The notes: generated by a model not told the origin, from the letters alone. Shown: positions 12,501 to 54,048, counted from the first letter of the stretch. The stretch is 64,000 nucleotides of DNA from Cyanidioschyzon merolae (GCA_000091205.1 AP006502.2), one strand, 5' to 3'. Numbers and translations are program-made.

Positions 12501-12743
12501 GGCGCCTCTAGTCCGCGCGCTTCTCCACATGGTGCCTCAACAACGAGCCTACCCAAAGATAGCGACGAGTGGCCCGTCGTAACGCCGCACACTGGTGGAC
12601 GCGACGGCGAACCAAAGTCACCGCGGCACTGGCTCCGTTCGAAGCCATGTACAAAAGTCGGTCCCTGGCAGCACCAGGTGGATGCAAGTCTCATGACCGA
12701 TACACCGCTTCGAGAGTCCGCAGATCGCTCCGAATATCGCTAG
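9576..12743 (+). CDS. Myb-family DNA-binding protein with three tandem Myb/SANT repeats (3R, c-Myb-like) and a long Ser/Ala/Pro-rich C-terminal region
   Basis: ATG at 9576. Three repeats carry the regularly spaced Trp residues: R1 [17 protein letters not shown]2 [28 protein letters not shown]3 [23 protein letters not shown]. The remaining ~800 aa are low complexity. A 1055 aa continuous ORF in GC-rich DNA. Confidence 0.8.
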
Positions 12744-22503: not shown

Positions 22504-23913
22504 TCAGGAGCGCAGGACCTGTCGATAAAGGTCCGCCTGGCGTTCTGCGTTCTCGAGAATTCGTTGGAACCTTGAATCGAGCTCCGCAATCAGCTGCTTC
22601 GCGGCGCTTACCTCCATCGCAAAACGTGACACTGTATCACGAAGCAGGTTGCTGAACGAGACCGCCTCGGCCTCAGCCGCCATGGAAAATTCCTCAAACC
22701 GTGACTGAAGCTCGAAGTGCTGTGCCTCTATGCGTTCCCGAAAGAGCATGCGCTCTTGATCCAGTTCTCGTTGGAGATCATGACGTTCTGCTTCACACTG
22801 CAGATGAAATCGCGCCCATTCATCGTGAAGACGGCTCTCGAGTTCTGCCTGTTCTGCAAGAAGCGAAGCTTTCCGGGCTTGCAGCGATCTTTCTATCGAA
22901 CGCTCGTACATCTCGACGGAAGTCTCCCGATGTCGCAAACTGCGCTCTCGTGCCTCCACAAGCTCAACAGGAACCATTCCCTGCATGAGACGCTCCATCC
23001 GAACACGCTGCTCTTCGAGGGTGCGCTGCATGTCGCGCAGGCGTGCCTCCCATGCCTCAAGTTCCTTCTCTCGCTGCAAGACGCTTTCCTTTCGCGCTTC
23101 GAGATCTTCCACGCGGGACTCGCGCTCGCGTAGTGCTCCTTCCCGAGCACGGAGACGCTTGTCAAGTTCAGCGTACTCGGCCTCAATCGCTTTTCGTTGC
23201 TGTTCTTCAAGTTGCTGTAGAACGACAGCGGGAACCAGATCAGCAAGCTGAGGTAGCGCTTGTGCCAGTCTCGGGAGATTCTCGCGCCAGGTCTCAATAA
23301 GCGACTTTTGCGAGCGCGCCAGCATTCTGAGCAAGTCGTGGATCTCCCGAGCATCGCGTTGTGCTCGGAGCAAGGTTACCTGCAAACGTTCGCACGAAGC
23401 TGTCGTTGCTGCAGGGACACTGCTCGCTGCGGCATTGTCCGAATGCACCTTGAAAACTGCGGCGCTGACACAGGAATCTACCACACTTTGCGCCACACTC
23501 TGTAGCTGCAATCGCTGGATTTGGTCTGTGAGCGTCTGCTGTTTGAGCTCAAACTCCACTAGGCGTCCATTCTGCTCCGCTACAACCTGCCTCAAACGCA
23601 GGGCCTCCGCTCGCGAAGACTCCAATTCTTTTTGAGACTCTTCCAGATGCTTCTGTAGTCGGCTGAGCCATTCGTCTCGTTCTTCCAGCTCAAGTCGCAA
23701 ATTGTCCACTTCAAGCTCTGCAAGCGCAACGCTTGCGAGGGTGCTGGTACTCGTGGTCTCCCCCAGGTTGGTCTTATTAGAGGAACGCGAAGCGTGCCGC
23801 CTTCCGATGCGCCAAGGACCACTGGGCATCTGTTCGTTTGTCGGTGTAGACACCTGTGGAGCCGTCTCCACCGCACTCAAGTTCGGAAGCGTGCCTGATA
23901 TCCCTGCGTCCAT
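22504..23913 (-). CDS. coiled-coil protein rich in Glu/Arg/Leu/Gln; function unknown
   Basis: The ORF runs to 24024 but starts at TTG. The first ATG is at 23913 (cat at 23911-23913 on the plus strand). The central 350 aa are heptad-like E/R/L/Q-rich sequence typical of coiled coils, with no enzymatic motif. Confidence 0.55.
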   Translation of the reverse strand: MDAGISGTLPNLSAVETAPQVSTPTNEQMPSGPWRIGRRHASRSSNKTNLGETTSTSTLASVALAELEVDNLRLELEERDEWLSRLQKHLEESQKELESSRAEALRLRQVVAEQNGRLVEFELKQQTLTDQIQRLQLQSVAQSVVDSCVSAAVFKVHSDNAAASSVPAATTASCERLQVTLLRAQRDAREIHDLLRMLARSQKSLIETWRENLPRLAQALPQLADLVPAVVLQQLEEQQRKAIEAEYAELDKRLRAREGALRERESRVEDLEARKESVLQREKELEAWEARLRDMQRTLEEQRVRMERLMQGMVPVELVEARERSLRHRETSVEMYERSIERSLQARKASLLAEQAELESRLHDEWARFHLQCEAERHDLQRELDQERMLFRERIEAQHFELQSRFEEFSMAAEAEAVSFSNLLRDTVSRFAMEVSAAKQLIAELDSRFQRILENAERQADLYRQVLRS

Positions 23914-24553
23914 CAAGGGTGGGCCTCCAACCCGGGGCGCTCGTTGACAGCTTCCACAAGGCGAACACGAATCGAGCGCCCCTGCGCTGCAAAGAGCGCC
24001 CAGGCTTTCCCGATAGCGACCCAAGGCACTCCCGAGTCCAACGTTTTGCGTGGTGCTTGCCAGGAGCCAGACTCGCGTCTGAGACGCAGCAACCGTTGCG
24101 CTGGGATCAGTGCGCGCCTACGAGCCTCGGCTATCGATAAAAACACGCCAACTCCGGAGCGTCCTGCAGGCTCGAGGGTACTCCACAACTCTTGAAGCTC
24201 TAACTTGCGTAAACTTTCTAACGTGTACTGAAGTACACACGAAACTTATCCACCTGACAAAGCCAAGCTGCTAGTACGCTTGCGTACGACGCAATTCCGA
24301 TGTGGACACAGGTGCTACGGCACGTCGCTACCACTCGTTTCGTTCTCGAGATCCCGGCACACAAACTGCGCTTGAGGCCGCAGTATTGGCTACCAAACGC
24401 CACCGCTGCAACTGCGGCTACGCAATCAGCGCTGTTAATACTGTCTCTCTCTCTCTGGGTGTGTTTATACGGTATCGTCAAAGTCGCCTTTCACAGGTGT
24501 TCTTCTCTCAGGCTGGAAGCGAAGCGTTTGACTGTCATGCTGCGACAGCGTTC

Positions 24554-25040
24554 GGAGGAAACTTGGGCACTTGCTTGAGGTCCTTCGAAAAGCCGAATAT
24601 ATTGGTGCTCGCGAAACCGTTGAAGTGAGCGTCCGGAGGAAACTTGGGCACTTGCTTGAGGTCCCTTGCAAAGCCGGATATATTGGTGCTCGCGAAACCG
24701 TTGAAGTGAGCGTCCGGAGGAAACTTGGGCACTTGCTTGAGGTCCTTCGCAAAGCCGAATATATTGGTGCTTGTGAAATCGTTGATGTGAGCGTCCGGAG
24801 GAAACTTGGGCACTTGCTTGAGGTCCCTTGCAAAGTCGGATATATTGGTGCTCGCGAAATCGTCGATGTGAGCGCCCGGAGGAAACTTGGGCACTTGCTT
24901 GAGGTCCCTGGCAAAGTCAGATATATTGGTGCTCGCGAAATCGTTGATGTGAGCGTCCGGAGGAAACTTGGGCACTTGCTTGAGGTCCCTGGCAAACCCG
25001 GATATATTGGTGCTTGTGAAATCGTTGATATGATCCAGGG
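24554..25040. repeat. 81-bp minisatellite, about 6 tandem copies with point variants
   Basis: The unit ggaggaaacttgggcacttgcttgaggtcc... recurs at 24554, 24635, 24716, 24797, 24878 and 24959. All three frames on both strands stay open across the array and give 27-aa peptide repeats. Confidence 0.85.
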
Positions 25041-26758
25041 TTTCGAGACTGCGCCATCGTCATCGGCATTCAAGCGAGGATTTATAGTGTCATATACTGG
25101 AGCTTCAACTTCAGAAAGCCCCAAAGTATACTTTTGTTCGCAAGGGCAAAGCCGTTTTCCTTGACATACCCACACCTTTTGATATGCGTGTCGTTCTCTG
25201 CATCGCGTATTCGCCAAGTCATATGTCTAGCGCCTGCAACTCCCATCCATGCATATCCAGGCTACTTTGAAAGTGAATCTTGGACATTTCCGTGCCGTTG
25301 GACACTGCTGCAGGACGTTGGTTTGTTTCGGAGGTACAGTTTGTGGCGCTTGCCTTGGACGGATTCTTCGGAATGTGAACGATGAATTGATGGATTCGGT
25401 AGATGCGCTTGTACGTACCGTTCGTGGTCGCTGGGCTCTTCAGACGGGCATCAGGGACCGAAGCCTGTTGACGTTTTGGCGCTCCGGCAGGGAGCAAAAC
25501 GCCTCGGAATGAGTTCCAGTGCCACGTGGCTCACTGGAAACATGGATCCTGTCAGACGACGTCATCTTTACCGTAGATTCATGGATGGGCATTACCCTGG
25601 AGAAGCATCCAGCAAGCCTCATTGCTGGACAATTGATACCGGATCACCGATGAGCGACATGCGCTCACGAGTACCGTTGACGCAGCGCAAACGAACGATC
25701 TCGTCATTGCGGAATTCTGCAATGATGCCAGCGATAAAGGCCTGGGGGCTCTGTCACCACGATACATTCATCGGAAGCGCATGCCGTCCAGTGTTTTCCA
25801 TGCTTCTATCTTCTGATCAGGGAAAAGACTCTTTTTGCGCCAGCGTTTGCAACTTGCGCGGCTAAACGTTGGCAACGAACTGATCAAGGGCGTCTGGCTT
25901 AGGCCCAGCAACCCTTCACGGTTTCTAGAGCACCTGAAGGCTCGGCACACGCTCATGAGCGTACCGAGCGATATATACATTCAAGAGCATCATCCGATAG
26001 AATCCTCGATCAACGTAAAAGATGCTCACTGCGCGAACCGAATTTCCTGTTGCATGGACATGCGTCGTACCTGTGGGCGAGGTTACCACTTGCCAGCGAT
26101 TGTCCCGCATTCAAGGCGGCACTTGACCGTGCTGCCACGTCCCAGGCAGCGCTCACAGCAGACTCGACACCCAGACGTTCGCATGAACTGACGAATACCT
26201 CGAGAGGAAACGAGGGGTGACGGTGCTGGTGGCGCCGACGGCGATGGCAGCTGCGGCATCTAGAGGCTGGTGAGACTTCAAGCTACGTCGCGACACGTCG
26301 GACGCGTTTCCACATACCAATAAACGTCGTGCTATCCGGGCTCGCTGGCTCGCGTCAATGATCCTAAACCCCTCAAACAGGGAACGCTGCACTGCTTTTG
26401 CCAACGACACACGCTTCCATTCATGTGACACAATCGACAAGTCGCTCTCGTGTCCGAGGTCCTGGTAGACAACACCTCACGGGATGCCCTACTGCTTTTC
26501 TTCCGATAACATAACCTTTACAATGACTACGAATCCCGGTTTGACACATGGATATGCCCTGCTGATCCGCAGCGCTCTCGAGATGGAGCGCAGCGGAACG
26601 CGTCGCGATGCCGTCGATTCGAACGCGATGCCGCTGGTGACCGTACAAGCCTTGGGTGTATCGCTGAGCTGCATTCCTGGTGGTGAGCGCGTCCTCCAGC
26701 AAGCTTGGGACCTGGTTTGCGAATAGCGTCCGAGTGACGCTGCTTCTCTCGCTTCAAG

Positions 26759-29700
26759 ATGGCTTTCTGGGAGCAATGCAAGCGGTTGCTAATTTTCATA
26801 CTTAAACTTCTTATTTCGGAAAAGTCGAAAAACGCACTTCGCGTCGCACTGGTGTGTGCAGCGGTGTCTATTACGATCTTCTTCGCAGTACTCAGGTCAC
26901 GCCTGGAGTGTTATACGAACAACCTAGCTTATGTAGCGCTTGTGATTATCGCACAGCACCCGCATATAGGATCCGTTTTGCGCGCCGGTGCAATCCTTAG
27001 CCTTGCGAGTCTCATTGCGACGGTGTTCGGTCTTGTTGGTCTGGCGATGGCAGACAAAAGTGCAGCGGCGCTCTACTTTATAACCCTGGTGTTTGCGGGA
27101 ATTGCAACCATTCTTCGAACGGACACCAATCCGATCTCTCCTGGTATGGGCATCTCGATTAACTTTCTGTTCGGGGCAATTTTCATTTTCTACGTGAAGA
27201 CGCCTCCATCCGAGGCCTGGGATCGAACGTACCCCACATTACTATCAGGTCTCTTTGCTTCTGCTGCATCACTGATTGGCGCGATCCTCATTTTTCCAAA
27301 GTCTGCTCGCCGGAGTCTTCGGACGGGACTGGCGGCTAGTCTACGAGAAACCGGGGACGTCTTGCGGGATCTACGAGAAACGCTTCAAAAGCCGCCGAAG
27401 GATCGCCAGTTCTCTATCTCGATCGAGTCGGAAATGGGTGGACAGAGCTTTGCTCCGGCGGCGCTTGCCAAAGTGCAAAATCTGCGAGCAGCTCTAGCGC
27501 AGCATCGAGTGATGCTTTCGTATATGCCTTTCGAGCCGAACCTGCTGCCTCCGTGGCAGTGTGAGCCTGATAAAGCCTGGAGCCGCCTGATAGACGCCGT
27601 AGAGGACTTTGTATTTCAGGTGGATGCGATTGTCTGTGTGTTCGCCAATGAACAGGCGTTTATATCGGAAGCTCTCAACGAGCTCTTTAGCGATTCGATT
27701 CAAGTCATGGTCGATTTCCTCGAAGCAGCGACAGAGAGCGCTCACAAGCTTGCAGATTCTATACAGGCCTATCCGCGAGCCCTGGATACCGATGTTGTGC
27801 TGACACGTCCAATGCGCCGACAGCTGAACCGGGTCATTGCTAGAGCGCGCCATCAGCGCTGGCAGGCGCTTCGTTACGAAGACCGGGATCGAGATGTGAA
27901 TCCCGCCTCGGCTTATGAATTTGCCTCCTTGATTTTTGTTGCATACAACATCCGTGCACTGCAGCGTCTTGTTGAGAATCTGAAGCAACGCGTATCGGAA
28001 CTTTTAACGGAACGTCGGCGACTGCGCTTCGCACCGATTGCCAACCTATTTCGATGGGTGCCGATGATCCTAATGGCGCCTGTACAGTCGTGGATGAAAA
28101 CGCATATCCTTTTGCGGAACCCGACAAATGCGAAATTTCTCATCAAATATCTTCTATGTGTAGCTATCATAACATTCCCGACGCTTTTTGTATCCCAGTT
28201 CTCGCACCGGGTGTACGCTTTCTTGCAGCACGATAACGCCATTTCTGCGTACATTATTGTGACGATCTTGTTTATGCGCGGCGTGGAGATGACGATATTC
28301 CGCGTGTTTCTCTACTTTACCGTGACCTTCGCTTCCTGCGCTTTGGCGTACGCTTTGACGGTTATGGCACCAACTGATCAGTACGTCATTGACATGTGGA
28401 TTGGTGTCTGGACCTGGGGTGCGCTGCTCGTGGCGTCCATTGACCCGGCGTATATTGTGACGACATTCCCTTTCCTGCTGGCCCAGTACTTTATAATCGG
28501 ATGCCAGTATGGACTCGGTTTTACATTTGTGTACGCGGCTTCTCGTGCTGTTTCGGTCTCTTGTGGCTGCTTCGTCGTTGCGGCAGTGAGCATTCTACTT
28601 TGGCCCTATCGAAGCGAAGAAGAAGTGCGCGCACTTCTGAGCCAGATTTTGACGTCCATTACCGAGCTATTCATCAAGACCAATGAAATATTTTTCAGAA
28701 TGAACAAGGAGGGCGGCAGTGCAATCTGGGAGGAGACCGGTGGTGCCGAAATTGAGTCGAAAATCCGTCAGACTGAGACGCTTATCACAGTCGTGAATCT
28801 GCGTATGATGCTCGATATCACACCGAACTACCGCAAGTCGTCGCTGCCGCAGGGCCTAGGCTGGGTGGCGCTGCTCATGCGACGTTTCTATTTGCTTCGC
28901 CAGGTTGTTCGCGCTTCTCCGCAGATTCGCGGCTGTTACAGCACAACCGCCTACGAGATGTTCCTGAAGCACCTGGAGCCAGAACTGGAAGTAATGCTCA
29001 ATGAGTGGAAGCAGACCGCTGAGTTTGCAGCGGAGCGGCTCCGATGCCGGCGAATTAACCGTCCGCCGCCCGACAAGCTTCTAGAGGCACTGCACCGTCT
29101 GCGGAGCGCCCGCGCTGGTGTCATCACAAAGTACGCTGCGGTCCGTTGCGATATGCTTCGACGCTGGCGTGAAAGCTTGATCGCGTTCCATCTGCATTCT
29201 GTAGATACCCGTCGAAGCGACGAATCTTCAACGGAACCGAAACACGACGGATCACTGACAGCAATATCCAGTGACTCGAGTTCGAGTCCGACGAACGAGC
29301 AATGCACTGAAAGAAATCCAATCGTGATTTCTCCGTCCAAGGACGCTGACACCCCGAATGTCATGGAGCCGGGCATGGACGTGGTTGCAGAACGCATGGA
29401 CACAGTGGATCTGGGACCTCCGGACCTCCACCCAGATGACTCGGTCCGCTTTCTCGCTTGGCTGTATGCGACGCGGCTCATGTATACGGCATTCGACTGC
29501 GTAAGCGAAGCCATTGGTAATCTGCGTTATGGCCCGCGTCGACGAACTCGTTGGCAGCGCCTGTGGCTACGACTCGCTGGTAAGAGCGGCCGTGATCATC
29601 GTCCAAAATCGTCGTCGACGTCGAAGGCATCGAAATCATCGGACGAAAAAGCGCATTCAGCTTCTGATAATGTGCAACCAACGGAAAACGAATCCAATGC

Positions 29701-29821
29701 GAGGCCGGACCCCGACGACGAAGAAGCCTCAGCTGTGGAGGTACGAACCAGCAACCAGGTAGCGAATACTGCGCCTTCCATCTCTGGTAGTCGTAAGGAC
29801 GCCGGTCACTATGCTTGCTGA
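26759..29821 (+). CDS. large two-repeat integral membrane protein, ArAE/FUSC/ALMT-like putative organic-anion transporter
   Basis: ATG at 26759, 1020 aa. An N-terminal block of ~6 TM helices is followed by a ~250 aa soluble region containing YMPFEPNLLPPW, which resembles the ALMT WEP-type motif. A second block of ~6 TM helices follows, then a long acidic, Ser-rich C-terminal tail. Confidence 0.7.
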   Translation: MAFWEQCKRLLIFILKLLISEKSKNALRVALVCAAVSITIFFAVLRSRLECYTNNLAYVALVIIAQHPHIGSVLRAGAILSLASLIATVFGLVGLAMADKSAAALYFITLVFAGIATILRTDTNPISPGMGISINFLFGAIFIFYVKTPPSEAWDRTYPTLLSGLFASAASLIGAILIFPKSARRSLRTGLAASLRETGDVLRDLRETLQKPPKDRQFSISIESEMGGQSFAPAALAKVQNLRAALAQHRVMLSYMPFEPNLLPPWQCEPDKAWSRLIDAVEDFVFQVDAIVCVFANEQAFISEALNELFSDSIQVMVDFLEAATESAHKLADSIQAYPRALDTDVVLTRPMRRQLNRVIARARHQRWQALRYEDRDRDVNPASAYEFASLIFVAYNIRALQRLVENLKQRVSELLTERRRLRFAPIANLFRWVPMILMAPVQSWMKTHILLRNPTNAKFLIKYLLCVAIITFPTLFVSQFSHRVYAFLQHDNAISAYIIVTILFMRGVEMTIFRVFLYFTVTFASCALAYALTVMAPTDQYVIDMWIGVWTWGALLVASIDPAYIVTTFPFLLAQYFIIGCQYGLGFTFVYAASRAVSVSCGCFVVAAVSILLWPYRSEEEVRALLSQILTSITELFIKTNEIFFRMNKEGGSAIWEETGGAEIESKIRQTETLITVVNLRMMLDITPNYRKSSLPQGLGWVALLMRRFYLLRQVVRASPQIRGCYSTTAYEMFLKHLEPELEVMLNEWKQTAEFAAERLRCRRINRPPPDKLLEALHRLRSARAGVITKYAAVRCDMLRRWRESLIAFHLHSVDTRRSDESSTEPKHDGSLTAISSDSSSSPTNEQCTERNPIVISPSKDADTPNVMEPGMDVVAERMDTVDLGPPDLHPDDSVRFLAWLYATRLMYTAFDCVSEAIGNLRYGPRRRTRWQRLWLRLAGKSGRDHRPKSSSTSKASKSSDEKAHSASDNVQPTENESNARPDPDDEEASAVEVRTSNQVANTAPSISGSRKDAGHYAC

Positions 29822-32643: not shown

Positions 32644-32940
32644 CTCCCAAGTCTATACATTTCTTATACAAGTGGACAACACGCGTTGCGGTCACCAGCA
32701 TCGTCCATGAACTCGATTTGGAATCAGCGCATCATTTTGGTACAATTAGGAATCTAATGGACAACACGCTTGGGGCCGCCACCACCTCCCATGCCTCTGC
32801 TGCGAAGGCACACGCTCTCGCCGGCATGCGCTTCTGTGGACACCACCAAGCGAGGTGTTATGACGTAGACACTGGAGTATGCAATATATCACGACGCCGC
32901 GGTAGGCTTAAGGACATCATAATCACGATTTTGAAAACAG

Positions 32941-35574
32941 ATGGAAGAATCAGTGGGAACGTACGCGACGCTTCATAGTCGACAACCTGCGTTCGTTGGA
33001 GAGCTCGTGAACGCCCGGCAAGTCAGTGCGCACTCGTGGAGACAACGAGCGTCCATTTATTCCAACCGACAGTACGTGTTTGGCCTGCCACACTTTCAGA
33101 ACTTTGCTTCTAAACGAAAGCGAAGTCGTTATTCAGTGTACAGGACGCAATGTGAACCGTGGCGGCAGCCGGGTCCCGCTGAGGCACGCTGGGCCGCGCT
33201 TGCTGGAGCTTGCTCCACCCTGCGCGCTGTGCAGCGCCAGGCTGACTTGCGTGAACCTCCATGCACCGCAACTGAGCCTAACCAAAGAGCGAACGCTTCG
33301 ACCACCAACGGAGAGTGGCGTCCGCGGCTCGTTGTTGTCGGACCTCCGGGTTCCGGCAAAACGACACTAACCGAGCAGTTGCGTCAAGTGTACGGTCTTG
33401 TACGGGTCGGATGCGGCGACCTGCTACGTGCCCACGTTTTATACGGGACGGATATTGGTTTGGCTTCCAAGGCGTATATGGAATCTAACGAACTGGTTCC
33501 AGATGGAATCGTGATACCTCTCGTTCTCGAAAGACTTCGACAACGAGATTGTGAGGAACACGGATGGGTCCTAGACGGATTCCCTCGGACTGAAGCGCAG
33601 GCGCTGGCCTTGTTTGACTTTCTGGATATCGTAGGTGACAGCGCTGATGCAGAAAACTCCAGTCCTTCGATATCCATGGGCGCAAGGCCCGCAGGAACCA
33701 TCATTCTGCTCGAAGCCAGCGATGAGTGTCTCGTGGAACGTATCCGCCATCGCCGCATTGACCCCGTTACCCATACTGTCTACAATATGAAGTTCAATCC
33801 ACCAGAAGAAGAGGATATCATGGAAAGGCTCCTCCGTGTCCCATCGGATGAACCGGAAGCGTTTCGCCTACGCCTGACGCAGTACCGGGAAGCGCTGCCG
33901 GCGCTCCTGGCATGCATTTCCCAGCTGACACGGGCTCGGCGTGGCGATCAAGCGAACAATGTTGGCCTGATTCGTCTGAATGTATCCGAGCCAGGTGTTC
34001 AAGATCGTTTCCAAGAACTTGAGGAGCAACTGAAGCGAATCTGGGGAGCCAAAAGGCGATCCAACCAGTACGCGGAACACATATCCGGTTCGGTCTGGGT
34101 GCCGCATGCCTCGACGGCACTTGCACGAGCGCGAGCGGCAGGATTGCTGAATACGCCCTCCACGCGTACCTTTTCGGACTGGCGTGAGGACCCGGTCGAG
34201 ACCTCACTCAATGGAGGCGCTGGTCAACGCGATCAACTAGGATCGGGCTTGAGTACAGCCCACGCGGACGACGATGCCGTGGAACCGATGCTTGATGGCG
34301 CGTCGATGTCATCTGGCCAAGTGTCGGCAGCGGAGCAAGGTGCCGCGAGCAGTCCAGTTCGTCGATCCAACGACAACGATGCTCCAGAGTTGACGCTGCG
34401 CTCAGATCCCGAGCGAGTAAAAGCGTCACCTCAACCAGTCGATGCCGAAACAGCGAATCGCTCGACGGCGAGCAAGTACGAAAAGGCGTCCATCACTTTG
34501 ATTCGTTGCGACGGTGTTCAGTGCGTTCGCGAAGTTGTTCATCTTGGTGATATCGCTTTTCATGGGAGCGCGACCGAACAAGTAATGCTTCGTTGGAACG
34601 AACGACCTCGAACGGTCCTCTTGCTCGTCAAAAAGGGAGCTAATCTTTGTGAAATAGCGAAGCAAGCGGTGGACTACTTGCAAAACAGCGAACGGCTTCG
34701 AGTGCTCGTCGAGCCCTGGGTCCAGACGGAGCTGTTCGCGCTCGGAACCTATACCGATTCGTTCCATCACAGCCAGGACTTGCACCGCTGCGTCGATCTG
34801 GTAGTTTGTCTCGGTGGTGATGGCCTCATTCTGTACACATCTACCCTATTTCGAACGGCGGTGCCTCCAGTTGCTCCGTTTAACCTTGGATCTCTCGGCT
34901 TTCTGACACCATTCGAATGGAAAGACTTTCAGGGACACATACGTACCATGCTTTCCAGTGATCTTATGCTTTCGCTGCGAATGCGCCTCTTGGCCACGGT
35001 GGTGCGCGTCTCGGGCCAAGCCGAGCAACAGTTTCATGTTCTGAATGAAGTTGTCGTAGACCGGGGAGCTTCGCCTTTTCTCTGCCAGCTGGAGTGTTAC
35101 TGGGATGATGCACCGCTCGCCAGCGTCCAAGCCGATGGGATTATCGTTGCGTCGCCGACCGGATCCACAGCCTACTCCCTCGCCGCCGGTGGTGCTATGG
35201 TGCACCCGAGTGTGCCAGCTATCTGTGTGACGCCGGTTTGCCCGCACTCGCTGGGTCTGAGGCCGGTTGTGCTCCCAGACTCGGCTCGTATTCGAGTCCA
35301 GGTGAGCCCCGAGGCACGCTCCCATGCCTGGGCGAGTTTCGACGGGAAGCACCGGCTGCAGCTGCGGCGCGGGGATTCGCTGCTTGTCGAAATGAGCAAG
35401 TACCCAATGCCGACTGTGAACGCTACTGATCATGCTGCCGACTGGTTTGGTTCTCTGAATCGTGGGTTCGGTTTTAACGTGCGCGGAGCGAAACCGAAAC
35501 CTCGTGTGATGGGGCGCTCCTCCACAGCGGAGCAAGCGAGTGTTGATCGCTTTGCGGACGGCACCGAATCATGA
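32941..35574 (+). CDS. single-ORF fusion of an adenylate kinase domain (N-terminal half) to an NAD+ kinase domain (C-terminal half)
   Basis: ATG at 32941. Residues ~120-330 carry the adenylate-kinase signatures: P-loop VVVGPPGSGKTT, GDLLRA, NELVPDG, GWVLDGFPRTEAQA. Residues ~560-877 carry the NAD-kinase signatures: GGDG in VVCLGGDGLIL, NEVVVDRG, and DGIIVASPTGSTAYSLAAGGAMVHP. A ~200 aa Ser/Ala-rich linker with no stop codon joins the two. The N-terminal ~110 aa are basic and hydroxylated, resembling a presequence. Confidence 0.75.
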   Translation: MEESVGTYATLHSRQPAFVGELVNARQVSAHSWRQRASIYSNRQYVFGLPHFQNFASKRKRSRYSVYRTQCEPWRQPGPAEARWAALAGACSTLRAVQRQADLREPPCTATEPNQRANASTTNGEWRPRLVVVGPPGSGKTTLTEQLRQVYGLVRVGCGDLLRAHVLYGTDIGLASKAYMESNELVPDGIVIPLVLERLRQRDCEEHGWVLDGFPRTEAQALALFDFLDIVGDSADAENSSPSISMGARPAGTIILLEASDECLVERIRHRRIDPVTHTVYNMKFNPPEEEDIMERLLRVPSDEPEAFRLRLTQYREALPALLACISQLTRARRGDQANNVGLIRLNVSEPGVQDRFQELEEQLKRIWGAKRRSNQYAEHISGSVWVPHASTALARARAAGLLNTPSTRTFSDWREDPVETSLNGGAGQRDQLGSGLSTAHADDDAVEPMLDGASMSSGQVSAAEQGAASSPVRRSNDNDAPELTLRSDPERVKASPQPVDAETANRSTASKYEKASITLIRCDGVQCVREVVHLGDIAFHGSATEQVMLRWNERPRTVLLLVKKGANLCEIAKQAVDYLQNSERLRVLVEPWVQTELFALGTYTDSFHHSQDLHRCVDLVVCLGGDGLILYTSTLFRTAVPPVAPFNLGSLGFLTPFEWKDFQGHIRTMLSSDLMLSLRMRLLATVVRVSGQAEQQFHVLNEVVVDRGASPFLCQLECYWDDAPLASVQADGIIVASPTGSTAYSLAAGGAMVHPSVPAICVTPVCPHSLGLRPVVLPDSARIRVQVSPEARSHAWASFDGKHRLQLRRGDSLLVEMSKYPMPTVNATDHAADWFGSLNRGFGFNVRGAKPKPRVMGRSSTAEQASVDRFADGTES

Positions 35575-40498: not shown

Positions 40499-41917
40499 TC
40501 ACCGCTCCGCCGATACACCACTGTTCGTCGCATGCCCAGAGTGCTGAGGATGGGCATGCCCGAGCTGCTGCAGCGCACGCTCCAGAATACGCTTCTTTCC
40601 TATGCGAAAGCGCCGCGCCAGCTCCAATCGCTGGTTGCTCGGCTGCCATTGCTCATCCTCAGTGAGCGTCGTCGGCTTGCGCGCGAGCTCTTCGCGAATC
40701 AGTGCTATCAGACCAGTCGCCGAGAGGTGTTGGACCGACTCTGGATTGCGCACGCGGCCTGTCGCATCGAAAACGATCGTCGTCTCTGAGGCATCGTCCC
40801 AGAGCTTGTACGTGTCGTGCGGGTTATCCTCTTCCACGAATCCGTACAAAGCCAAAAGTTCATCGTTGGTCAAAGTGCCGTACGATATGAAGACCTGATC
40901 GCCTGCATGCGTGTCTCGATTGCTTATGCTGAGCGAAAAAGCATCATAAAAGTACTCATAAGCGACCTTCGATTGGACGCGAGAAGAATGATTGAAGAGA
41001 TCAATGAAAGGTGCAATGACATACTTCTTCAACGGTGCACCCTGCATGGACTGATAAATGCGCGGGTACAGCGCGTCAAATACGAGCTGCGACAAGACCA
41101 CCACCAGAAAGACGTTCAGTGCTGCGAACGCGTCCATGAGATGAAAGTTCCAGCTCGCTAGGGAAAGTGCCCCAGCGAAACACGCCTGACGCCAGCGTTC
41201 ACCGAATGGCGTCGTCTCGGAGGGTCCGCTGAATGCGCGCGTGACAACGACGTTCAACGCCCACTGAAAGTCCTGTTCGCTGAATAAACCTCCTCGCACT
41301 TTCAAATCGATTCCGCCTCGTTCGAATGTCTGCCGCACGAACCGACCATAGAGATCCTTCCATTTTCGTTCCTGCTCGCTGATAGCCCGCAAAAGACAAT
41401 CATACTGGAGCTCCCGACGTTCTGCATCTGTCCAGTACAGAGGCCGCTCGTCAAATGTTGTCGGCAAGAGACGGAACCAGGGCGAAAGTGTGCAGTTAGA
41501 CGCCGATACTTTGGCAGGGCCTCGACGCTGGTTTGGCCGGATCTCCCAGCGCTTTAATTTGCGACGCAAGACAAGAGTCTCTAGCTTTCGAGCAGACTCA
41601 GGATCTGCTTTGTACCGCTCGAAAAGCAACAGAAGCGCGAGACGAGCGTACCAAGGCGCCTGCTTCCAGAACATGGGCGCGCAGACCTCTTCTGGCAGAG
41701 GACAACCTCGTCCGCTATCATCGGAGCGGGTCTGCAACGCCAGAAACCCCGGCACTCGAGCGAGAATCGAACCTGCAGGCAAGGCGGTTTCAGCTCTGAG
41801 GCCGCGTAGGTGCTCGCGGCCAAAGTGCGCAATGCTGAGTTCAGCGGTTTCAATGCCGGCGCCTTTTGCCCACTCCATAAAGCCGACCTCTATGCTATGA
41901 TCATTCAGCGTTGTCAT
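40499..41917 (-). CDS. SET-domain protein-lysine N-methyltransferase, SETD3/SETD6/Rubisco-LSMT-like
   Basis: The ORF is open up to 42634, but the SET-family N-terminus (MTTLNDHSIEVGFMEWAKGAGIE...GRGL-type start) begins at the ATG near 41917. The C-terminal part holds IAPFIDLFNHSSRVQSKVAYEY and VFISYGTLTNDELLALYGF, which are the SETD3/6 and LSMT hallmarks. The upstream 240 codons of open frame are most likely non-coding 5' region. Confidence 0.8.
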   Translation of the reverse strand: MTTLNDHSIEVGFMEWAKGAGIETAELSIAHFGREHLRGLRAETALPAGSILARVPGFLALQTRSDDSGRGCPLPEEVCAPMFWKQAPWYARLALLLLFERYKADPESARKLETLVLRRKLKRWEIRPNQRRGPAKVSASNCTLSPWFRLLPTTFDERPLYWTDAERRELQYDCLLRAISEQERKWKDLYGRFVRQTFERGGIDLKVRGGLFSEQDFQWALNVVVTRAFSGPSETTPFGERWRQACFAGALSLASWNFHLMDAFAALNVFLVVVLSQLVFDALYPRIYQSMQGAPLKKYVIAPFIDLFNHSSRVQSKVAYEYFYDAFSLSISNRDTHAGDQVFISYGTLTNDELLALYGFVEEDNPHDTYKLWDDASETTIVFDATGRVRNPESVQHLSATGLIALIREELARKPTTLTEDEQWQPSNQRLELARRFRIGKKRILERALQQLGHAHPQHSGHATNSGVSAER

Positions 41918-42609
41918 ATCTAGCTGTGGCGAATGCCTCGTGGCTTCCCTGGTCCATGTATTCTGCTGGGGTTCCTCGCCCGCTGTACTCCTTTGGTGCT
42001 CGCGCGTGTTGCAGTGTTCGCCGCTTTTTTCTTCGCCCAGCTCTCCCTCTCGAGATAGCGTCGCACGCACGCTGGACCGGAAACGAGTCATCAACCGATT
42101 ACACGGAGAGAGGGCCGGTCCGCTGCACACGGACAACGCCACCGGGCACCGTTGCTGCCACACGGTCGACGGCAGCAGCCACGCAACGGTCATCTGGTCT
42201 GGTTCAGCTCTACCAGAAAACAAAAGCATAGTCCCAGTGAGTGACAACTGATCCGACGCAGCCTCACTCGAAGACGCAATCACACGCGCACCTCGCAAAA
42301 AGCAGAACCGTTCAGTGGACGACAATTTCGGAACGTCGCAGGTCACTGCGAAGCTATGATGCGCTGTGCCGCTGCGCTCCAGAGTTGCAAACACTCGCCC
42401 GTTCTTTCGGGGCGCAGCGTAGCCCGGTGCTCCAGTGTGCTTCCAGAGGTCCTTCTTGTACGTCTGAAACGTTTCTACGAAACCACTGAACAGCTTTCTA
42501 TCGTCCAACACGAAACTCAGGAGCTTCAGTCCTTGAGCGAACGAGCATGAGCTTCGTGCTCGCGAGCAGTTCGAGATAGGACGTTTTGGATCAAACGAGG
42601 ATCCGTCGC

Positions 42610-43829
42610 TGAGTTCGCGCACCCCTGGAAGCAAACGCCTTTCGAAAGTCGAACAACAGCGGTGTACAGTAGTGGCGGCAAACGCGCCCTAGACAAGAAG
42701 TCTCCAACCGAGATGCAGACGCCTCCCAGGTTTTTTTCGACCGGCCACCCACTACTGCTTCCAATCTTGTCTCATATAGCTCGACTTTGAGAGGTTGTCC
42801 AACAAAGTCCTCTCTTGTCCACTCTGGAGGTCTCGTCTCCAGCACCGCATATTTCCTTATATTGATTGCGGCGTTATAGTCACGATTCACAAACTCCATA
42901 CGTTTCGTGCCATTGATTGTAATTAATAATGCGAGTAGCCCTCGCACTTTCTTCCTTCTTTGCATTTGCTCTTCCGTCAGCGGTCCGTATTTTGCTATAT
43001 CCTCAGGGCTCCTCTGGCACTTTTCCATCTCCACTCTCTGAAGTGTACAACCCAGCTCATAGTGTATATACGATGTTCGGAACTCATCTACAGGTATGGT
43101 AACAAAACGCCTTGCGCACTCTTTGTATGTTCTTGTCGTTGGAGCTGGCGTAGCTCCTTTTTGGGTCTTCCAGCGCACCGCCCCATACGCTACTACGAGC
43201 CTTTGATTTCATTCTCCTTCAGGGCACTCAACCCATTGAAAAAGTTGGCAAACGCCCGCTACCTCCCACCGTATAGATTCATACGCAAACGAGCCCACCG
43301 GGGCTTGGTATACTCCTCCCATAGCGCCTCCCAGTGAGCAACACGAACTTCTATGAATTTCCGAAAAGCTTTAAAGTCCGCTCCTCGGCTCGTCACCTCG
43401 CTCAAAGCTTCCAGGTGCTCTTTCATTCCTGAGTTCCAAGTCTCGATTTTCTTCCTCGCATTCATAATACCGGATTCTCGATAGTATCTTGCTCTCGAGA
43501 GCCTCAAAAGACGCATGTCTTTCTGACGTAAGTTACCATCAGTCCCATCTTCCGCACACTTTGGTACAGCGATGGTTATGATGTTCGTATTCCCAGGGTC
43601 CGCGCCAACGACAAAGTCGTTATCCTGCACCTCCTGCATCGCAAGATCCGCACCCTTCTCATCTACATCCTTCGCCGAGCCGTCTACAAGGTTGTACTTT
43701 TCCACTTCCTGCGTCGCAGGATCCGCATCCTTATCATCTACATCCTTCGCCGAGCCGTCTACAAGGTCGTCATCCTCCACTTCCTTCGTCGCAGGATCCG
43801 CATCCTTCTCATCTATATTCTTCGCCACG
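42610..43829 (-). mobile_element. TnpB/Fanzor-like element copy B, the most complete copy, frameshifted; it forms the left arm of a head-to-head palindrome with copy C
   Basis: ORF 43259..43828 encodes acidic 25-aa repeats, then FVVGADPGNTNIITIAVPK (a RuvC-I GxDxG motif) and RLLRLSRARYYRESGIMNARKKIETWNSG. ORF 42591..43178 encodes ...RWKTQKG..YKECARRFVTIPVDEFRTSYIHYELGC...MEFVNRDYNAAINI. A 1-nt deletion relative to copy A sits between them, giving tcgtagtag. The conserved 3' tail cgccactactgtacaccgctg lies at ~42656. Confidence 0.65.
43610..43829. repeat. 75-bp tandem repeat, ~2.7 copies, encoding the acidic 25-aa repeats at the N-terminus of TnpB-like copy B
   Basis: The unit atccttcgccgagccgtctacaaggtNgtNNtNNtccacttcctNcgtcgcaggatccgcatccttNtcatctac is read directly from the sequence. 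The protein repeat is VDGSAKDVDDKDADPATQEVEKYNL. Confidence 0.75.
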
Positions 43830-47067: not shown

Positions 47068-50000
47068 TCATGTGATGCTTTCCAAAGCAGCACCTAGGGC
47101 GTGGTCATCAAACACGTCGTGGAAATCCCAGAACTGTACATTCCAGCGGGGGTGGTAGCGTCGACACCAGCGCTCAAACCCCTGGATATATGCGGGTCGC
47201 AGGTGCGCATCCAAAGAGTTCCGGAACGCCACCATGGACTCCTCGATGATCGAGGGATCCATGAGAATGCTCCCCGACAACGGATCCAGCATCACCTTGA
47301 CCGGAACATGCTCATAACCCCAGAAAGGCAGTTTCGTCACGATATCGCCGACCGCTGCCCATCGGAATGAAAACGGCACATGTCGCTGGAACGCTGCGGC
47401 GAAAGCGCGATTCCCGACTCGAGGCGACCCAAAAGTCACACTCATCACCAGATCCGATGACAGACGCAACGACTGTGAATTCTCAAAACACGTCATATCG
47501 AGGGCAGCGATGGTTGCCAGGGCCCCGCCGAGAGAGTGACCGCAAAAGATCACCGGTTTGTGGTTGCAAGATGCACTATCCAAGGAGTTCATCGCACTAC
47601 ACGGTTGCGCTTCGCTCGCATCTGCTGCTGCTGCTGCTGCTGCTGTAGCAGTTTCGCTTCGACACCGCGCTGCGGTCTCTCTACCCACTAAGCTCAGCTG
47701 CTGTTGCTGCTGCCCGTGTTCACAACCGCCATGAATATCTGCACTGGACACCTTGGGAAAGCGGTTCGATGGTTGCACGCGCCTATCCAGGCTGGTAGCG
47801 ACACCACAAGTGGCATCGCCGCAGGTGCTGCTCAAGGGCGCGCAAGCCGCATCCACTGCGGTTGGTGCAGTGCTCGAGGGCTTCGCAACAAGCGGTTTCA
47901 GCGTCTCCATTAACTCTTCACGCACGGATAAATAGGCGTGCAAAAATCCACCGTGCACCATTGAAGGCAATCGTCGCCCTATGAGATACGAAAAATCGTC
48001 ACCAGCCTGAGCGCGAAAATCACCAAAGCGCAGGGAACGGATCCCGCGTACGCTCAGCATATACTGCCACCATCGTCGATGTGCAAAACGGCCTCCAGGA
48101 TCTAAACCGAGTTCCTGTGACAGGGCATCATCAAGACCGCGCTCTATATCCGAATCGTCCTTGGCAAAGGCCTCCACTGATGCCTGGTGCTTCCTAGTCG
48201 AATCTATTTCGCGCTTGCTGTGTGTTGCGGGCGGTATTTGCGAACAAGTCGCAGCCGAGGTGCCGCTACGCCCGGCAGCCAAGGCAGTGGTGCTTACAGC
48301 ATTCGTCGTACGAGGCATTCGAGTTGTACCGTCGACAGTCGCTTTCGCCGGTGACTCCCGCAACGACCCGCGTTGACCGTGTTTGCTGCAGGCGCTCAAG
48401 CGCCACGTATCCTGTATTTGCGGACATTCACGTGCATGCAGGTGCTCCTCGAGAGGAACCCGTCGGACATTCATATCTGTGCGTAAATTTCTGGTGCTTT
48501 TGGTACCGCGAAAGCTCACCACAATCCTATCCGCCAAGTCAATGACGAGCACATGTACATCTGTAACGGCGCTGGAGATATGCCGCACGACTCGTGCTTG
48601 CAGGGGGTCCATTTCGCCCACACCATAATGATTGAACATCTCTGCATACATATGCGGGTCATGCCACGGTCGATAGGACAGGTACGCCATGTTGAAGATC
48701 AAAACATGCGTCTCGAGGACAAGTGAGCGCGAGAGCCAGCTGTCTCCATTTCGCAGTGCTTCCTGCTCAGTCTGGTAGTAGAGGTTTGCTTTGCGCAGCT
48801 CTCGCTCTGCATCCAGTGCGTCCGCTGGCCACGGTGCCGCCTGGCTGGCGCTGTGCGCGGACAACTCCCACTCGGAGGAAACGCTCCTTTGTGGGGCTCG
48901 CTTTTCTTGATATGCAGCTGGGTCCGGAGCCAGCGCAACGATCCAGGGCAGCCAAACACCCAGCACTGTCGGAGGTAAATGCACATAGAGCAGGAGCACC
49001 GACCATGTAAAGAGCATCGCGAAGGCACCACCATTGAATCGTGCAATACCCAGCAACCGCAACGGTACGCCATCGAGGGACGCGTTCGCGCTGGGTAATG
49101 GTACCAGGCCCACTGCGATGGTATCGTTTGCAATCAGGAATATATAGGATATCGCAGTAAAGACACGGTAGAAACGAGCACCCATTTGTTTGTGATGACA
49201 ACAGGTATACGGCAGCTGCTGGAGCACTCGGAAGGTGCGGTAGAGCTCCATGGCAATCCAACCATCGAGGAAAATGCGCATGGTAACCACGAGCGCAAAC
49301 GTAAGCGAGTAGGCCACTTGTTGTTGGTGTCCACGCATAGCAAACTGAACCAACATGCCCGGCCAGGTGAGTCCTAACGCCGTTCGAGACCAGCCGCAAA
49401 TGGCTGTCTCCACGGCGGCGATGATCAAACAGAGACCAAATACCACGCGGTTTCGTTCTAGAAACGTGTGGCGATCCTTAATATCACGATAAAGTCGTAG
49501 AATAGCCATGGCGTGTCCATAAAAACCAAATATCCAGAACCATTGCCAGACCAGGTCGGAGACATAGAGAATGGCAATCGTGGTGCCGCTCGCTTCCGAT
49601 ATCGTTCGTGCAATATTGCCTATAATATTCATCGTAAAGAATATAAATAGACCTTGTAGGAAGCAGCTGCGCATTTCGAAGGTGCAACGGATCCATCCAT
49701 ACCGATAGAGACGCAAAAAGTAGACGATCGTGAAAGTAAGCTGGAGCACGCAAAAGCAGTACACGACGACGCGGTCAACGAGGTTGAGTGCCGGGAGTGC
49801 CGCTTCGAAACGGCGTGCAAACAGACTCATTGCTAGCGTGTAGGTGACGGAGAGCACGATTGCACTGCATAAGTTGAGAATTTGCCAAGTTACCTGCTTC
49901 GAGGATAGCGTCTCAAGGAGGAACTTGGCTTCCTTTGGATCGCTTCGAATCTGTGGTGGAGCAAAGAAACTCGACAAACGACTGCGGTGACGTGCACTGC

Positions 50001-50118
50001 TTCGACGTGTGCGCGTGCCTCGTTCCTGTCCATTGATGAGTTCGCTGCTGCCTCTTAGCGTGCTGTCTCCAAATGTCTCCGACTCGAACGACGAGACGGA
50101 GGTACCACGAGCAGCCAT
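47068..50118 (-). CDS. multi-pass membrane class-3 lipase, sn-1 diacylglycerol-lipase (DAGL)-like
   Basis: The track ORF extends to 50133, but its first codon is not ATG. An ATG lies at 50118 (MAARGTS...). About seven N-terminal TM segments are followed by a lipase_3 domain: DRIVVSFRGT, nucleophile elbow VIFCGHSLGGALATIAALD, and VTFGSPRVGN. A ~250 aa low-complexity insertion carries a polyQ/polyA tract encoded by (CTG)n on the plus strand at 47622-47646. Confidence 0.8.
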   Translation of the reverse strand: MAARGTSVSSFESETFGDSTLRGSSELINGQERGTRTRRSSARHRSRLSSFFAPPQIRSDPKEAKFLLETLSSKQVTWQILNLCSAIVLSVTYTLAMSLFARRFEAALPALNLVDRVVVYCFCVLQLTFTIVYFLRLYRYGWIRCTFEMRSCFLQGLFIFFTMNIIGNIARTISEASGTTIAILYVSDLVWQWFWIFGFYGHAMAILRLYRDIKDRHTFLERNRVVFGLCLIIAAVETAICGWSRTALGLTWPGMLVQFAMRGHQQQVAYSLTFALVVTMRIFLDGWIAMELYRTFRVLQQLPYTCCHHKQMGARFYRVFTAISYIFLIANDTIAVGLVPLPSANASLDGVPLRLLGIARFNGGAFAMLFTWSVLLLYVHLPPTVLGVWLPWIVALAPDPAAYQEKRAPQRSVSSEWELSAHSASQAAPWPADALDAERELRKANLYYQTEQEALRNGDSWLSRSLVLETHVLIFNMAYLSYRPWHDPHMYAEMFNHYGVGEMDPLQARVVRHISSAVTDVHVLVIDLADRIVVSFRGTKSTRNLRTDMNVRRVPLEEHLHARECPQIQDTWRLSACSKHGQRGSLRESPAKATVDGTTRMPRTTNAVSTTALAAGRSGTSAATCSQIPPATHSKREIDSTRKHQASVEAFAKDDSDIERGLDDALSQELGLDPGGRFAHRRWWQYMLSVRGIRSLRFGDFRAQAGDDFSYLIGRRLPSMVHGGFLHAYLSVREELMETLKPLVAKPSSTAPTAVDAACAPLSSTCGDATCGVATSLDRRVQPSNRFPKVSSADIHGGCEHGQQQQQLSLVGRETAARCRSETATAAAAAAADASEAQPCSAMNSLDSASCNHKPVIFCGHSLGGALATIAALDMTCFENSQSLRLSSDLVMSVTFGSPRVGNRAFAAAFQRHVPFSFRWAAVGDIVTKLPFWGYEHVPVKVMLDPLSGSILMDPSIIEESMVAFRNSLDAHLRPAYIQGFERWCRRYHPRWNVQFWDFHDVFDDHALGAALESIT
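47622..47646. repeat. (CTG)n trinucleotide repeat inside the lipase CDS, encoding a poly-Gln/Ala tract on the minus strand
   Basis: The run tctgctgctgctgctgctgctgctg is read from the sequence. A second shorter run lies at ~47697. Confidence 0.8.
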
Positions 50119-50475
50119 GAGGGCAGCGTGCAAGCAGAATTAGAGTTGCATATTGTTCGGTACCCGTGCACTGCAGTGCAGAGTATACGGACCACGAAGC
50201 ATGAATATGGCAAAGAAGGTTCGTTTTTATGTATGGAGCGGTGCGTATGCGCATCCGCTCACACACGTTCACAAGCCCCAAGTCGGCTAGCTAAGGATTC
50301 CTGCACTGCACTGCACTGCCGTTCTTGGTCGTTCGAATTCGCAATCCAGAAACGCATCCCATGCGGACGCTCGAGACGCTCTCTGCTCACCAGCGCAACT
50401 CCATGAGGCTCCATTCCTGCTATGCGTATTCGTATGCTATGTTGATGTGTATAGCAGAAGGTCGAGATGTAGAAG

Positions 50476-53307: not shown

Positions 53308-54048
53308 TCACACTGCAGCTGACAGCCGTGATTTGTGTAGTGCAGACCGTCGACTACGACTTTCCTTTCGTGACTGGCGGGCCTCGGCTTGTCGCTGAGC
53401 GAGGAGCTTTTCGTACTCTGCGGCCTCCGCTTTCGCCTTCAAGGCCCTTGTGCGCTGTACGGCTCGCCGTCGACGCTTACGCTGTAATGACTGCGCGGTC
53501 ACTAGACGCTGGATTTTGGGAGCTTTCTCGTAGGTCTTCCCCGAGGCAGTCGTCACTTTGCGCCGAATGACATATTTGCGCACGTCGTCGTCCTTGCTCA
53601 AGTTAAACAACTTGCGGATTTTAGAAGCTCGTTTCGGACCCAGACGACGCGGGATTATTCGATCCGTTAAGCCGGGTATCTCTTGCTCGCCTTGACGCAC
53701 AATGGCCAGGTTCACTACGCTCATCTCGCTGCTGATGATGCAACCACGCACGCTTCGTCGCTTTCGCTCGCCATCACGCATACCATAACCCCGACAACCG
53801 ACGTCTCCCTTGTGCATCAGAAGCCGTACGCGGTTCGGTGTGAGGACACCGAGACGCGCGGGAAACCCTTCCTTGTCCTGCGCACCCATTATGCGCAGGA
53901 TCGTGCCGCGGAACTCCTCTCCGAGTAACGCTTCGCCATCCACTTCTTGAGCGATGCGCTTATCATAGATGGCTCGCAACCGACTCTCGTCGTCTATTTC
54001 AAACTGCTTCTGGCAACCTGTCGCAGGATTCGCGACGTTGAACTTCAT
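53308..54048 (-). CDS. RPS6: 40S ribosomal protein S6 (eS6)
   Basis: ATG confirmed as cat at 54046-54048. [21 protein letters not shown]...[12 protein letters not shown]...[12 protein letters not shown] is the canonical eS6 sequence. The Ser-rich basic C-terminus is intact in this intronless ORF. Confidence 0.92.

Follow-up and report, generated by a model that had tools for sequence, protein, structure and literature searches.

The CMT143C locus and its product

We analyzed a 64,000-nucleotide stretch of DNA from Cyanidioschyzon merolae (GCA_000091205.1, AP006502.2), referred to below as the window, in which one open reading frame (ORF) at 32941..35574 on the + strand joins an adenylate kinase (AK) domain to an NAD kinase (NADK) domain. 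According to the ORF list, the frame starts with ATG, runs for 877 codons to its stop without interruption and contains no introns, and its product is identical over 877/877 residues to XP_005539182.1/BAM83146.1 of C. merolae 10D, a record labelled 'similar to inorganic polyphosphate/ATP-NAD kinase'. The gene is nuclear CMT143C (CmNADK2) of the red alga C. merolae, listed in Table S1 of Li et al. 2014 (PLoS One 9:e101051, PMC4072752) as BAM83146.1, 877 aa, subfamily II. The same identity removes the stramenopile setting proposed in the first-pass annotation of this DNA, which had been made from the sequence alone. Two stop codons lie in frame 5′ of the ATG (TGA at -9 nt and TAA at -21 nt), and the second methionine of the protein, M180, is already within the AK domain, so that only the start at M1 yields this domain intact.

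From the N- to the C-terminus, the ORF encodes a disordered basic extension, an AK-fold domain, a disordered linker of ~140 aa and a complete NADK domain. The occurrence of both domains in one 877-aa ORF, as first proposed, was borne out by Pfam, NCBIfam, PDB and the ORF list and is not that of a chance ORF. The motifs quoted at that stage (GPPGSGKTT, GGDG, NEVVVDRG, DGIIVASPTGSTAYSLAAGG and MLDGASMSS) are all present in the places given for them.

Domain layout and predicted structure

The Pfam matches comprised ADK (PF00406, aa 132-323, E = 8.6e-30, 104.3 bits against a cutoff of 26.8), NAD_kinase (PF01513, aa 559-671, E = 9.9e-13, 49 bits against 25.5) and NAD_kinase_C (PF20143, aa 701-827, E = 2.4e-36, 124.7 bits against 23.7), and the matches in the PDB included human NADK (9cr4, E = 8.7e-77) and maize chloroplast AK (1zak, E = 9e-40). 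An AlphaFold2 (AF2) model built on 18 orthologues (mean predicted local distance difference test score, pLDDT, of 59.5; predicted template modelling score, pTM, of 0.42) contained two folded domains, namely the AK at aa 125-371 (pLDDT ~70-89) and the NADK at aa 512-830 (pLDDT up to 93), with pLDDT < 50 for aa 1-124, 233-250, 372-511 and 831-877. Alignment with E. coli Adk and the AF2 model both placed the end of the AK fold beyond the Pfam match, at ~aa 371, so as to include the last strand and the C-terminal helix.

Because the AK fold reaches ~aa 371 and the NADK fold begins at ~aa 512, the unstructured linker spans ~140 aa (aa 372-511, 34054..34473, +), shorter than the ~200 aa originally estimated; its description as Ser/Ala-rich and free of stops was accurate (S+T 21%, Ala 15%). 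This segment, which holds Met450, is predicted to be disordered (pLDDT < 50) and is poorly conserved, with 7.5% identity between cyanidiophytes and florideophytes and 35% within florideophytes, where it measures ~60-70 aa. In the florideophyte linkers (P0004-P0017) the motif RPASAAAAMRA is kept, preceded by PLVAxPPxxLGRAxAVRE (alignment A1, columns ~470-490), and may represent a conserved helix or a regulatory site. The C-terminal tail (aa 831-877, 35431..35571, +) is weakly conserved according to per-region identity and is modelled by AF2 as a short helix followed by disorder.

Distribution of the fusion and evidence for a single polypeptide

A word-indexed protein search returned 17 proteins with the ADK+NADK architecture. 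Among the cyanidiophytes, orthologues were found in Cyanidium caldarium (KAK4534023.1, 819 aa), in the newer annotation of Cyanidiococcus yangmingshanensis (KAK4529524.1, full-length at 867 aa, with ADK and NADK by Pfam) and on a Cyanidiococcus-like metagenomic cyanidiophyte contig, L001, which carries an 862-aa ORF including the P-loop (L001:3554-6142). In florideophytes, both domains are encoded by transcripts of Eucheuma denticulatum (GFKZ01009072.1, 'ORF type: complete') and Agarophyton chilense (GEZJ01003134.1, complete ORF; genome entry CAN8066299.1), as well as by a Trinity transcript of Gracilaria changii, again in a complete ORF. The same fusion is thus present in Cyanidiococcus, Cyanidium and florideophytes, the kind of related species in which the first-pass annotation had suggested looking for it. 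A single polypeptide is the simplest reading, since the architecture is kept across red algae, complete transcript ORFs included.

An exhaustive phmmer search of 1.84 billion (1.84e9) representative proteins gave 30,818 matches, the best 150 of which were checked domain by domain; this scope applies to the statements on distribution and relatives below. The combination of AK and NADK was found there in the red-algal clade only (P0003, P0011, P0014 and the incomplete P0058) and in no protein from outside the red algae. Other long matches were considered as possible fusions and rejected, as they contain either NADK domains alone (e.g., two of them in the choanoflagellate Didymoeca) or several AK domains (e.g., the oomycete Lagenidium). 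From these sequences, the fusion appears to be confined to red algae and to be older than the split between Cyanidiophyceae and Florideophyceae.

P0002 (629 aa) and P0036 (713 aa), which seem to lack the ADK domain, were dismissed as 5′-shortened gene calls, as the contig ORF has 862 aa and includes the P-loop. The same kind of shortening affects a third public model, P0043 (KAF6005138.1, 535 aa). Such models have lost the AK domain wholly or in part, the real ORF in these cases being 862-867 aa long. These models are also what bears on the possibility that the fusion is an artefact of assembly or annotation in which two adjacent genes were merged, an explanation that can be regarded as effectively refuted. 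No support for it was found. Some automated calls (P0002, P0036 and KAF6005138.1) do shorten the gene, beginning inside the AK domain with in-frame sequence 5′ of them that includes the P-loop. Moreover, the frame is intact in the window, in ~10 independent JGI (Joint Genome Institute) contigs, in the Cyanidiococcus-like L001 and in Cyanidium, and complete transcript-derived ORFs exist in the three florideophytes.

The long, disordered and unconserved linker would be accessible to proteases, and C. merolae has Met450 and Met456 in it, which raises the option that two separate enzymes exist in vivo, either through internal initiation in the linker (e.g., at Met450) or through cleavage of the linker after import. 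We consider this improbable. The closest relatives, namely the Cyanidiococcus-like and Cyanidium orthologues, do not share Met450 (in MLDGASMSS, aa 450-458), and an NADK made from an internal start would be left without the N-terminal targeting sequence. The fusion has, in addition, stayed in frame across the Cyanidiophyceae-Florideophyceae split with linkers of ~60 to 140 aa, and florideophyte transcripts encode all of it in one complete ORF. The internal start at MLDGASMSS, named at first as an observation that would speak against a fusion enzyme, lies in a disordered, non-conserved segment whose Met450 is not kept even in these orthologues.

The NAD kinase half

The NADK domain (aa 512-830, 34474..35430, +) was delimited by PF01513, PF20143, the alignment with human NADK and AF2, and its aa 547-849 align with the whole catalytic core of human NADK 9cr4 (E = 1.8e-78). 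Following the motif definitions given in PMC4072752, it contains GGDG (aa 625-628, nt 34813-34824, +), NEVVVDRG (aa 702-709, nt 35044-35067, +) and the Gly-rich motif DGIIVASPTGSTAYSLAAGG (aa 732-751, nt 35134-35193, +), with the core PTGSTAYSLAAGG at aa 739-751. The GGDG, NE/D and Gly-rich (TGSTAY..AGG) motifs are invariant in the 17 orthologues. We infer that the C-terminal half would phosphorylate NAD+ to NADP+ with ATP.

The closest full-length relatives without the fusion were Dionaea 'NAD kinase 2', Riccia and Chlorokybus. A pre-catalytic beta-hairpin, ITLIRCDGVQCVRE (aa 518-531, 34492-34533, +), is held in common with streptophyte NADK2, reading ITLIRCDGxxCxRE in red algae versus LVRTDGFSCTRE in streptophyte NADK2 (consensus L[IV]R[CT]DGxxCxRE...QxML.W). 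NADK2-type relatives and a common hairpin agree with the subfamily II placement by Li et al., and on sequence grounds the domain belongs to the Archaeplastida NADK2 lineage (chloroplast; subfamily II of Li et al.), a judgement based on best matches, the hairpin and that placement. The Arabidopsis member of subfamily II, NADK2, is described in PMC4072752 as chloroplastic.

The hairpin cysteines C523 and C528 are invariant in 17/17 fusions; C528 and the RE motif also occur in streptophyte NADK2, where the C523 position is a Thr. It is a speculative idea that C523/C528 could form a redox-sensitive pair in a plastid enzyme.

The adenylate kinase half

The AK domain (aa 125-371, 33313..34053, +; PF00406, 1zak and AF2) is of the long type with a LID, its P-loop GPPGSGKTT lying at aa 134-142 (nt 33340-33366). 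The fold is complete in the AF2 model, with core, NMP (nucleoside monophosphate) site, LID and C-terminal helix, and aligns end to end with 1zak and E. coli Adk. The LID region (aa 269-312, 33745..33876, +), delimited by reference alignment and residue mapping, runs from RHRRIDP ... to RLLRVPSDEPEAFRLRL. An insertion of ~18-20 aa, which follows the GFPR strand region and precedes the next strand, is specific to the three cyanidiophyte sequences; in C. merolae it covers aa 233-250 (33637..33690, +) and is predicted to be disordered (pLDDT < 50), and alignments showed it to be absent from the florideophyte orthologues and from the reference AKs.

We mapped the 17 fusion AK domains onto E. coli Adk, with the canonical AK P0018 aligned alongside; the key residues of E. 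coli Adk were checked solely within the reference sequence used for this mapping. The equivalents of K13, R36, D84, R88, Q92, R119, R123 and D159 are invariant in 17/17 fusions. In C. merolae, R272 stands at the position of R123, V300 at that of R156, D303 at that of D159 and R311 at that of R167, while the D158 position is occupied by Ser, Ala, Val or Lys across the 17 fusions. Identity between cyanidiophytes and florideophytes amounts to 34-36% for the AK domain versus 6-7% for the N-terminus and linker, a clear sign of constraint on the AK domain that speaks against its being dead.

An origin of the AK domain from adenylate kinase 8 (AK8) was considered and set aside. The top PDB rank of AK8 arose from two domains summed, and per domain the maize chloroplast AK scores higher (1zak 147 bits; AK8 domains 88 and 72).

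The N-terminus and targeting

The first 124 residues (32941..33312, +) form an N-terminal extension that, judged from AF2, composition and motif, is a putative plastid transit peptide, with PAFVGE at aa 16-21. Its net charge is +9, its D+E content 6-7%, its S+T content 15% and its pLDDT below 50, and with 6% identity to florideophyte N-termini it is unconserved apart from an [AG]F[VILA] motif. Of the 13 orthologues whose N-terminal extension is 20 aa or longer, 11 have this motif near the start. Seven florideophyte orthologues open with M-E/D/N/T-A/G-F-V/A/L, so that the motif begins at residue 3 and its Phe is the fourth residue; the starting residue is 5 for Cyanidium, 11 for P0011, 12 for L001 and 17 for C. 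merolae (AFV, aa 17-19). In rhodophytes and glaucophytes, plastid transit peptides have a motif based on Phe at their extreme N-terminus (PMC7038456). The early impression of an organelle presequence was thus supported by the basic, acid-poor and disordered character of this region, and a motif of the red-algal plastid type, although displaced in C. merolae, points to the plastid, from which we infer that the CMT143C protein would be imported into the plastid via a Phe-type transit peptide.

A basic, acid-poor N-terminus also suits mitochondrial presequences, the Phe motif of C. merolae lies 17 residues from the start, and one streptophyte homologue was named 'NAD kinase 2, mitochondrial' by its depositor. 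Mitochondrial or dual targeting instead of plastid import nevertheless seems unlikely to us, if slightly less so than the existence of two separate enzymes, given that the M-x-A-F-V start of florideophytes fits the rhodophyte F-based plastid motif and that the NADK half is of the NADK2 lineage, whose Arabidopsis member is chloroplastic (PMC4072752).

Genomic surroundings

The genes flanking CMT143C are of ordinary eukaryotic nuclear type and have no functional tie to NAD(P) metabolism. They encode a DEAD-box (SPB4-like) helicase (3438..5588, -), an R2R3 Myb (9576..12743, +), a class-3 lipase-domain protein (47068..50133, -) and ribosomal protein S6e (53308..54048, -). Further long ORFs at 26759..29821, 40499..42634, 22504..24024 and 55331..56467 had no significant Pfam match, and neither tRNA genes nor Rfam families were detected anywhere in the 64-kb window.

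The 3.1 kb immediately 5′ of CMT143C (29822-32940) hold no ORF of at least 180 aa, which seems long against the otherwise close spacing of ORFs; no RNA family was detected in this stretch. It is partly taken up by copy B of a 1.4-kb direct duplication (19686-21083 = 31249-32644, 98.2% identity over 1399 bp, copies 11.56 kb apart), in which neither a convincing ORF nor a match to tRNA or Rfam was found and whose copy B ends 297 nt 5′ of the CMT143C ATG. Positions 24466-25113 contain a tandem array of ~8 units of 81 nt, with 68-93% identity between 243-nt windows and the reference. The array falls within two ORFs that overlap each other, 24465..25217 (-) and 24571..25164 (+), and if coding, each unit would specify a 27-aa repeat. 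Downstream of CMT143C, 38014-38938 and 50490-51414 form a diverged direct repeat with 69% identity over 940 bp.

Proposed function

NAD kinase is the sole route to NADP+, so how much NADPH photosynthesis can generate in the plastid depends on how this enzyme is controlled. The reading that we prefer as a whole, with a probability of roughly 0.55 on the sequence evidence, is that CMT143C encodes a plastid-imported bifunctional protein in which an NADK with a tethered AK would couple NADP+ synthesis to stromal adenylates. The NADK half would convert NAD+ and ATP to NADP+ and ADP, with the tethered AK domain binding adenylates beside it. At least in cyanidiophytes, the AK would probably catalyze 2 ADP <-> ATP + AMP, a step that would remove ADP, the product of the NADK, and regenerate its donor ATP, for a net reaction of 2 NAD+ + ATP -> 2 NADP+ + AMP. 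Plastid NADP+ synthesis would thereby be tied to stromal adenylate status.

Several observations weigh against this coupled enzyme. The R156 position is occupied by Val, Ile or Leu in 17/17 fusions, R167 is kept by the three cyanidiophytes alone, all 14 florideophyte-type sequences having Leu, Ser, His or Val instead, and in the P-loop, GPPGSGK with its invariant Lys is followed by Thr or Ser in place of G14 in all 17 (GK[TS][TS], not GKGT). Phosphoryl transfer by AKs depends heavily on the two LID arginines, so that canonical AK activity may be weak or absent; the domain also scores 145.4 bits against NCBIfam adk (TIGR01351), below the cutoff of 168. The original suggestion that the AK domain could feed ATP to the NADK is weakened by the absence of R156 everywhere and of R167 in florideophytes, and judged from its residues the catalytic competence of the domain is uncertain. 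As to structure, AF2 shows no confident contact between AK and NADK (pTM 0.42), and a floppy tether of ~140 aa, as modelled, is a means of proximity and no channel. The Phe of the putative transit peptide is residue 18 in C. merolae, away from the extreme N-terminus. Ten JGI contigs encoding the protein with a one-residue variant all end 117-477 nt 5′ of the ATG, and these ends were considered as transcript 5′ ends and rejected, as they coincide with the end of the 1.4-kb duplication and are assembly breaks at the repeat; a contig look-up with the exact sequence of the window protein gave no entry. Finally, no biochemical, localization or transcript data for CMT143C were found in the literature.

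The same residues bring in the main rival to the coupled enzyme, in which the AK fold binds nucleotides for the purpose of regulation, acting as a sensor of adenylates or energy charge with little catalysis. Its shift between open and closed forms on binding of ATP or AMP would modulate the NADK, as N-terminal regulatory extensions do in other eukaryotic NADKs. We hold it to be possible, at odds clearly below even. The P-loop Lys and the equivalents of the NMP-site residues R36, R88 and Q92 are invariant, yet the LID residues R156 (in all) and R167 (in florideophytes) are lost, a pattern that would suit a sensor, above all in florideophytes with their missing LID arginines. The score below the NCBIfam adk cutoff points the same way, and green NADK2 holds PF22741 at the same position, which suggests an accessory or regulatory slot. 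On the other hand, D84, R119, R123 and D159 are also invariant, beyond the needs of binding alone. R296, 3-4 residues before the R156 position, is invariant as well, C. merolae has R299 in addition, and the Lys of 'LDKD' does not vary among florideophytes; any of these might stand in spatially for R156. AK8, whose domains likewise have a GK[TS] P-loop and no R156, is reported to be active in a 2011 study by Panayiotou et al. in Biochem J.

For the coupled enzyme and the sensor alike, the fusion suggests a tentative wider idea, which we think is rather less likely than the preferred reading: that red algae have a means of their own to regulate the size of the NADP(H) pool in the plastid, with an AK of atypical LID either regenerating ATP from the ADP of the NADK or sensing AMP/ADP/ATP and so gating the NADK. 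By analogy, the AK domain would then take the part that in green NADK2 may fall to PF22741 or a calmodulin-binding region. If true, this would be the first case in which a single polypeptide has the dependence of NADP+ synthesis on adenylate energy charge built into it. An AK-NADK2 fusion across a deep split, together with a phosphatase-like domain in the green lineage, suggests that the red and the green lineage have each tied NADP+ synthesis to a second activity that handles phosphoryl groups. As C. merolae is amenable to genetics, the proposed coupling is directly testable there.

Comparison with published records and known systems

The first-pass annotation did not recall this pairing as described, but Li et al. 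2014 (PMC4072752) report ADK fused to subfamily II NADKs and list CMT143C. In that paper, some NADKs carry an adenylate kinase domain (PF00406), and extra N-terminal catalytic domains of subfamily II (DSPc, PTPc/DSPc or ADK) are attributed to gene fusion. The parts of the paper considered here do not name the species with the ADK domain, and the paper offers no biochemistry, localization or residue-level analysis of it. The rhodophyte proteins in its data set include CMT143C, and AK+NADK was found here in red algae only. Beyond Li et al. 2014, nothing was found in the literature on CMT143C or on an AK-NADK fusion. As far as this source goes, the pairing has been put on record, in annotation and in print, as a matter of domain content and is uncharacterized. 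The fusion itself being known, its interest is low to moderate and rests on the function of the AK. What is new here is incremental: the red-algal restriction within the searches described above, the span across a deep split, the replacement of PF22741, the disordered linker and N-terminus, the Phe motif and the atypical LID.

CmNADK2 of Li et al. (PMC4072752) is the same protein as the window ORF (877/877, no sequence difference). Streptophyte NADK2 (Dionaea GAB2289814.1, Riccia KAL3689759.1 and Chlorokybus) resembles CMT143C in the hairpin, the three catalytic motifs and a long N-terminal extension. The green-lineage proteins differ from it in having PF22741 ('DSP-PTPase phosphatase fused to NAD+ kinase') N-terminally and no AK, and a Thr at the position of Cys523. 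PF22741 is present in P0052 (Dionaea), P0053 (Riccia), P0057 (Chlorokybus) and P0050, and had no match by Pfam in the CMT143C protein; it is an accessory trait of green members that is not needed for subfamily II. Because green NADK2 carries PF22741 where the red-algal proteins carry the AK, the slot N-terminal to the NADK2 core is, judging from these architectures, filled independently by two phosphoryl-handling domains, AK in red and PF22741 in green.

Human cytosolic NADK (3pfn, 9cr3/9cr4, 8kgc) shares the core, which aligns over aa 547-849 (E ~1e-77) with identical motif positions, but has no AK domain and an unrelated N-terminal region. For the AK half, maize chloroplast AK (1zak) and E. 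coli Adk (1ake) have the same fold and the same order of P-loop, NMP-binding region, LID and C-terminal helix, 1zak being the best single-domain solved match (147 bits). In contrast to both, CMT143C has GKTT and not GKGT, Val at R156, Ser at D158, a LID that is 4 residues shorter and the 18-aa cyanidiophyte insertion, and it is fused to a second enzyme. The ciliary AK8 (PDB 9fqr chain G8) is similar in its GK[TS] P-loops, the lack of R156 and an 'RLL/RLM' LID segment, but is a tandem AK without NADK and, with its domains scored singly, does not surpass 1zak. A precedent for an NADK with an N-terminal phosphoryl-handling enzyme of the same pathway is the archaeal NADP phosphatase/NAD kinase (NF010678, PRK14076; MJ0917-type). 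The NADK half of CMT143C matches it with E = 1.1e-40 at 140 bits, far below the cutoff of 493, and the partner of the archaeal enzyme is an inositol-monophosphatase-like NADP phosphatase, whereas that of CMT143C is an AK.

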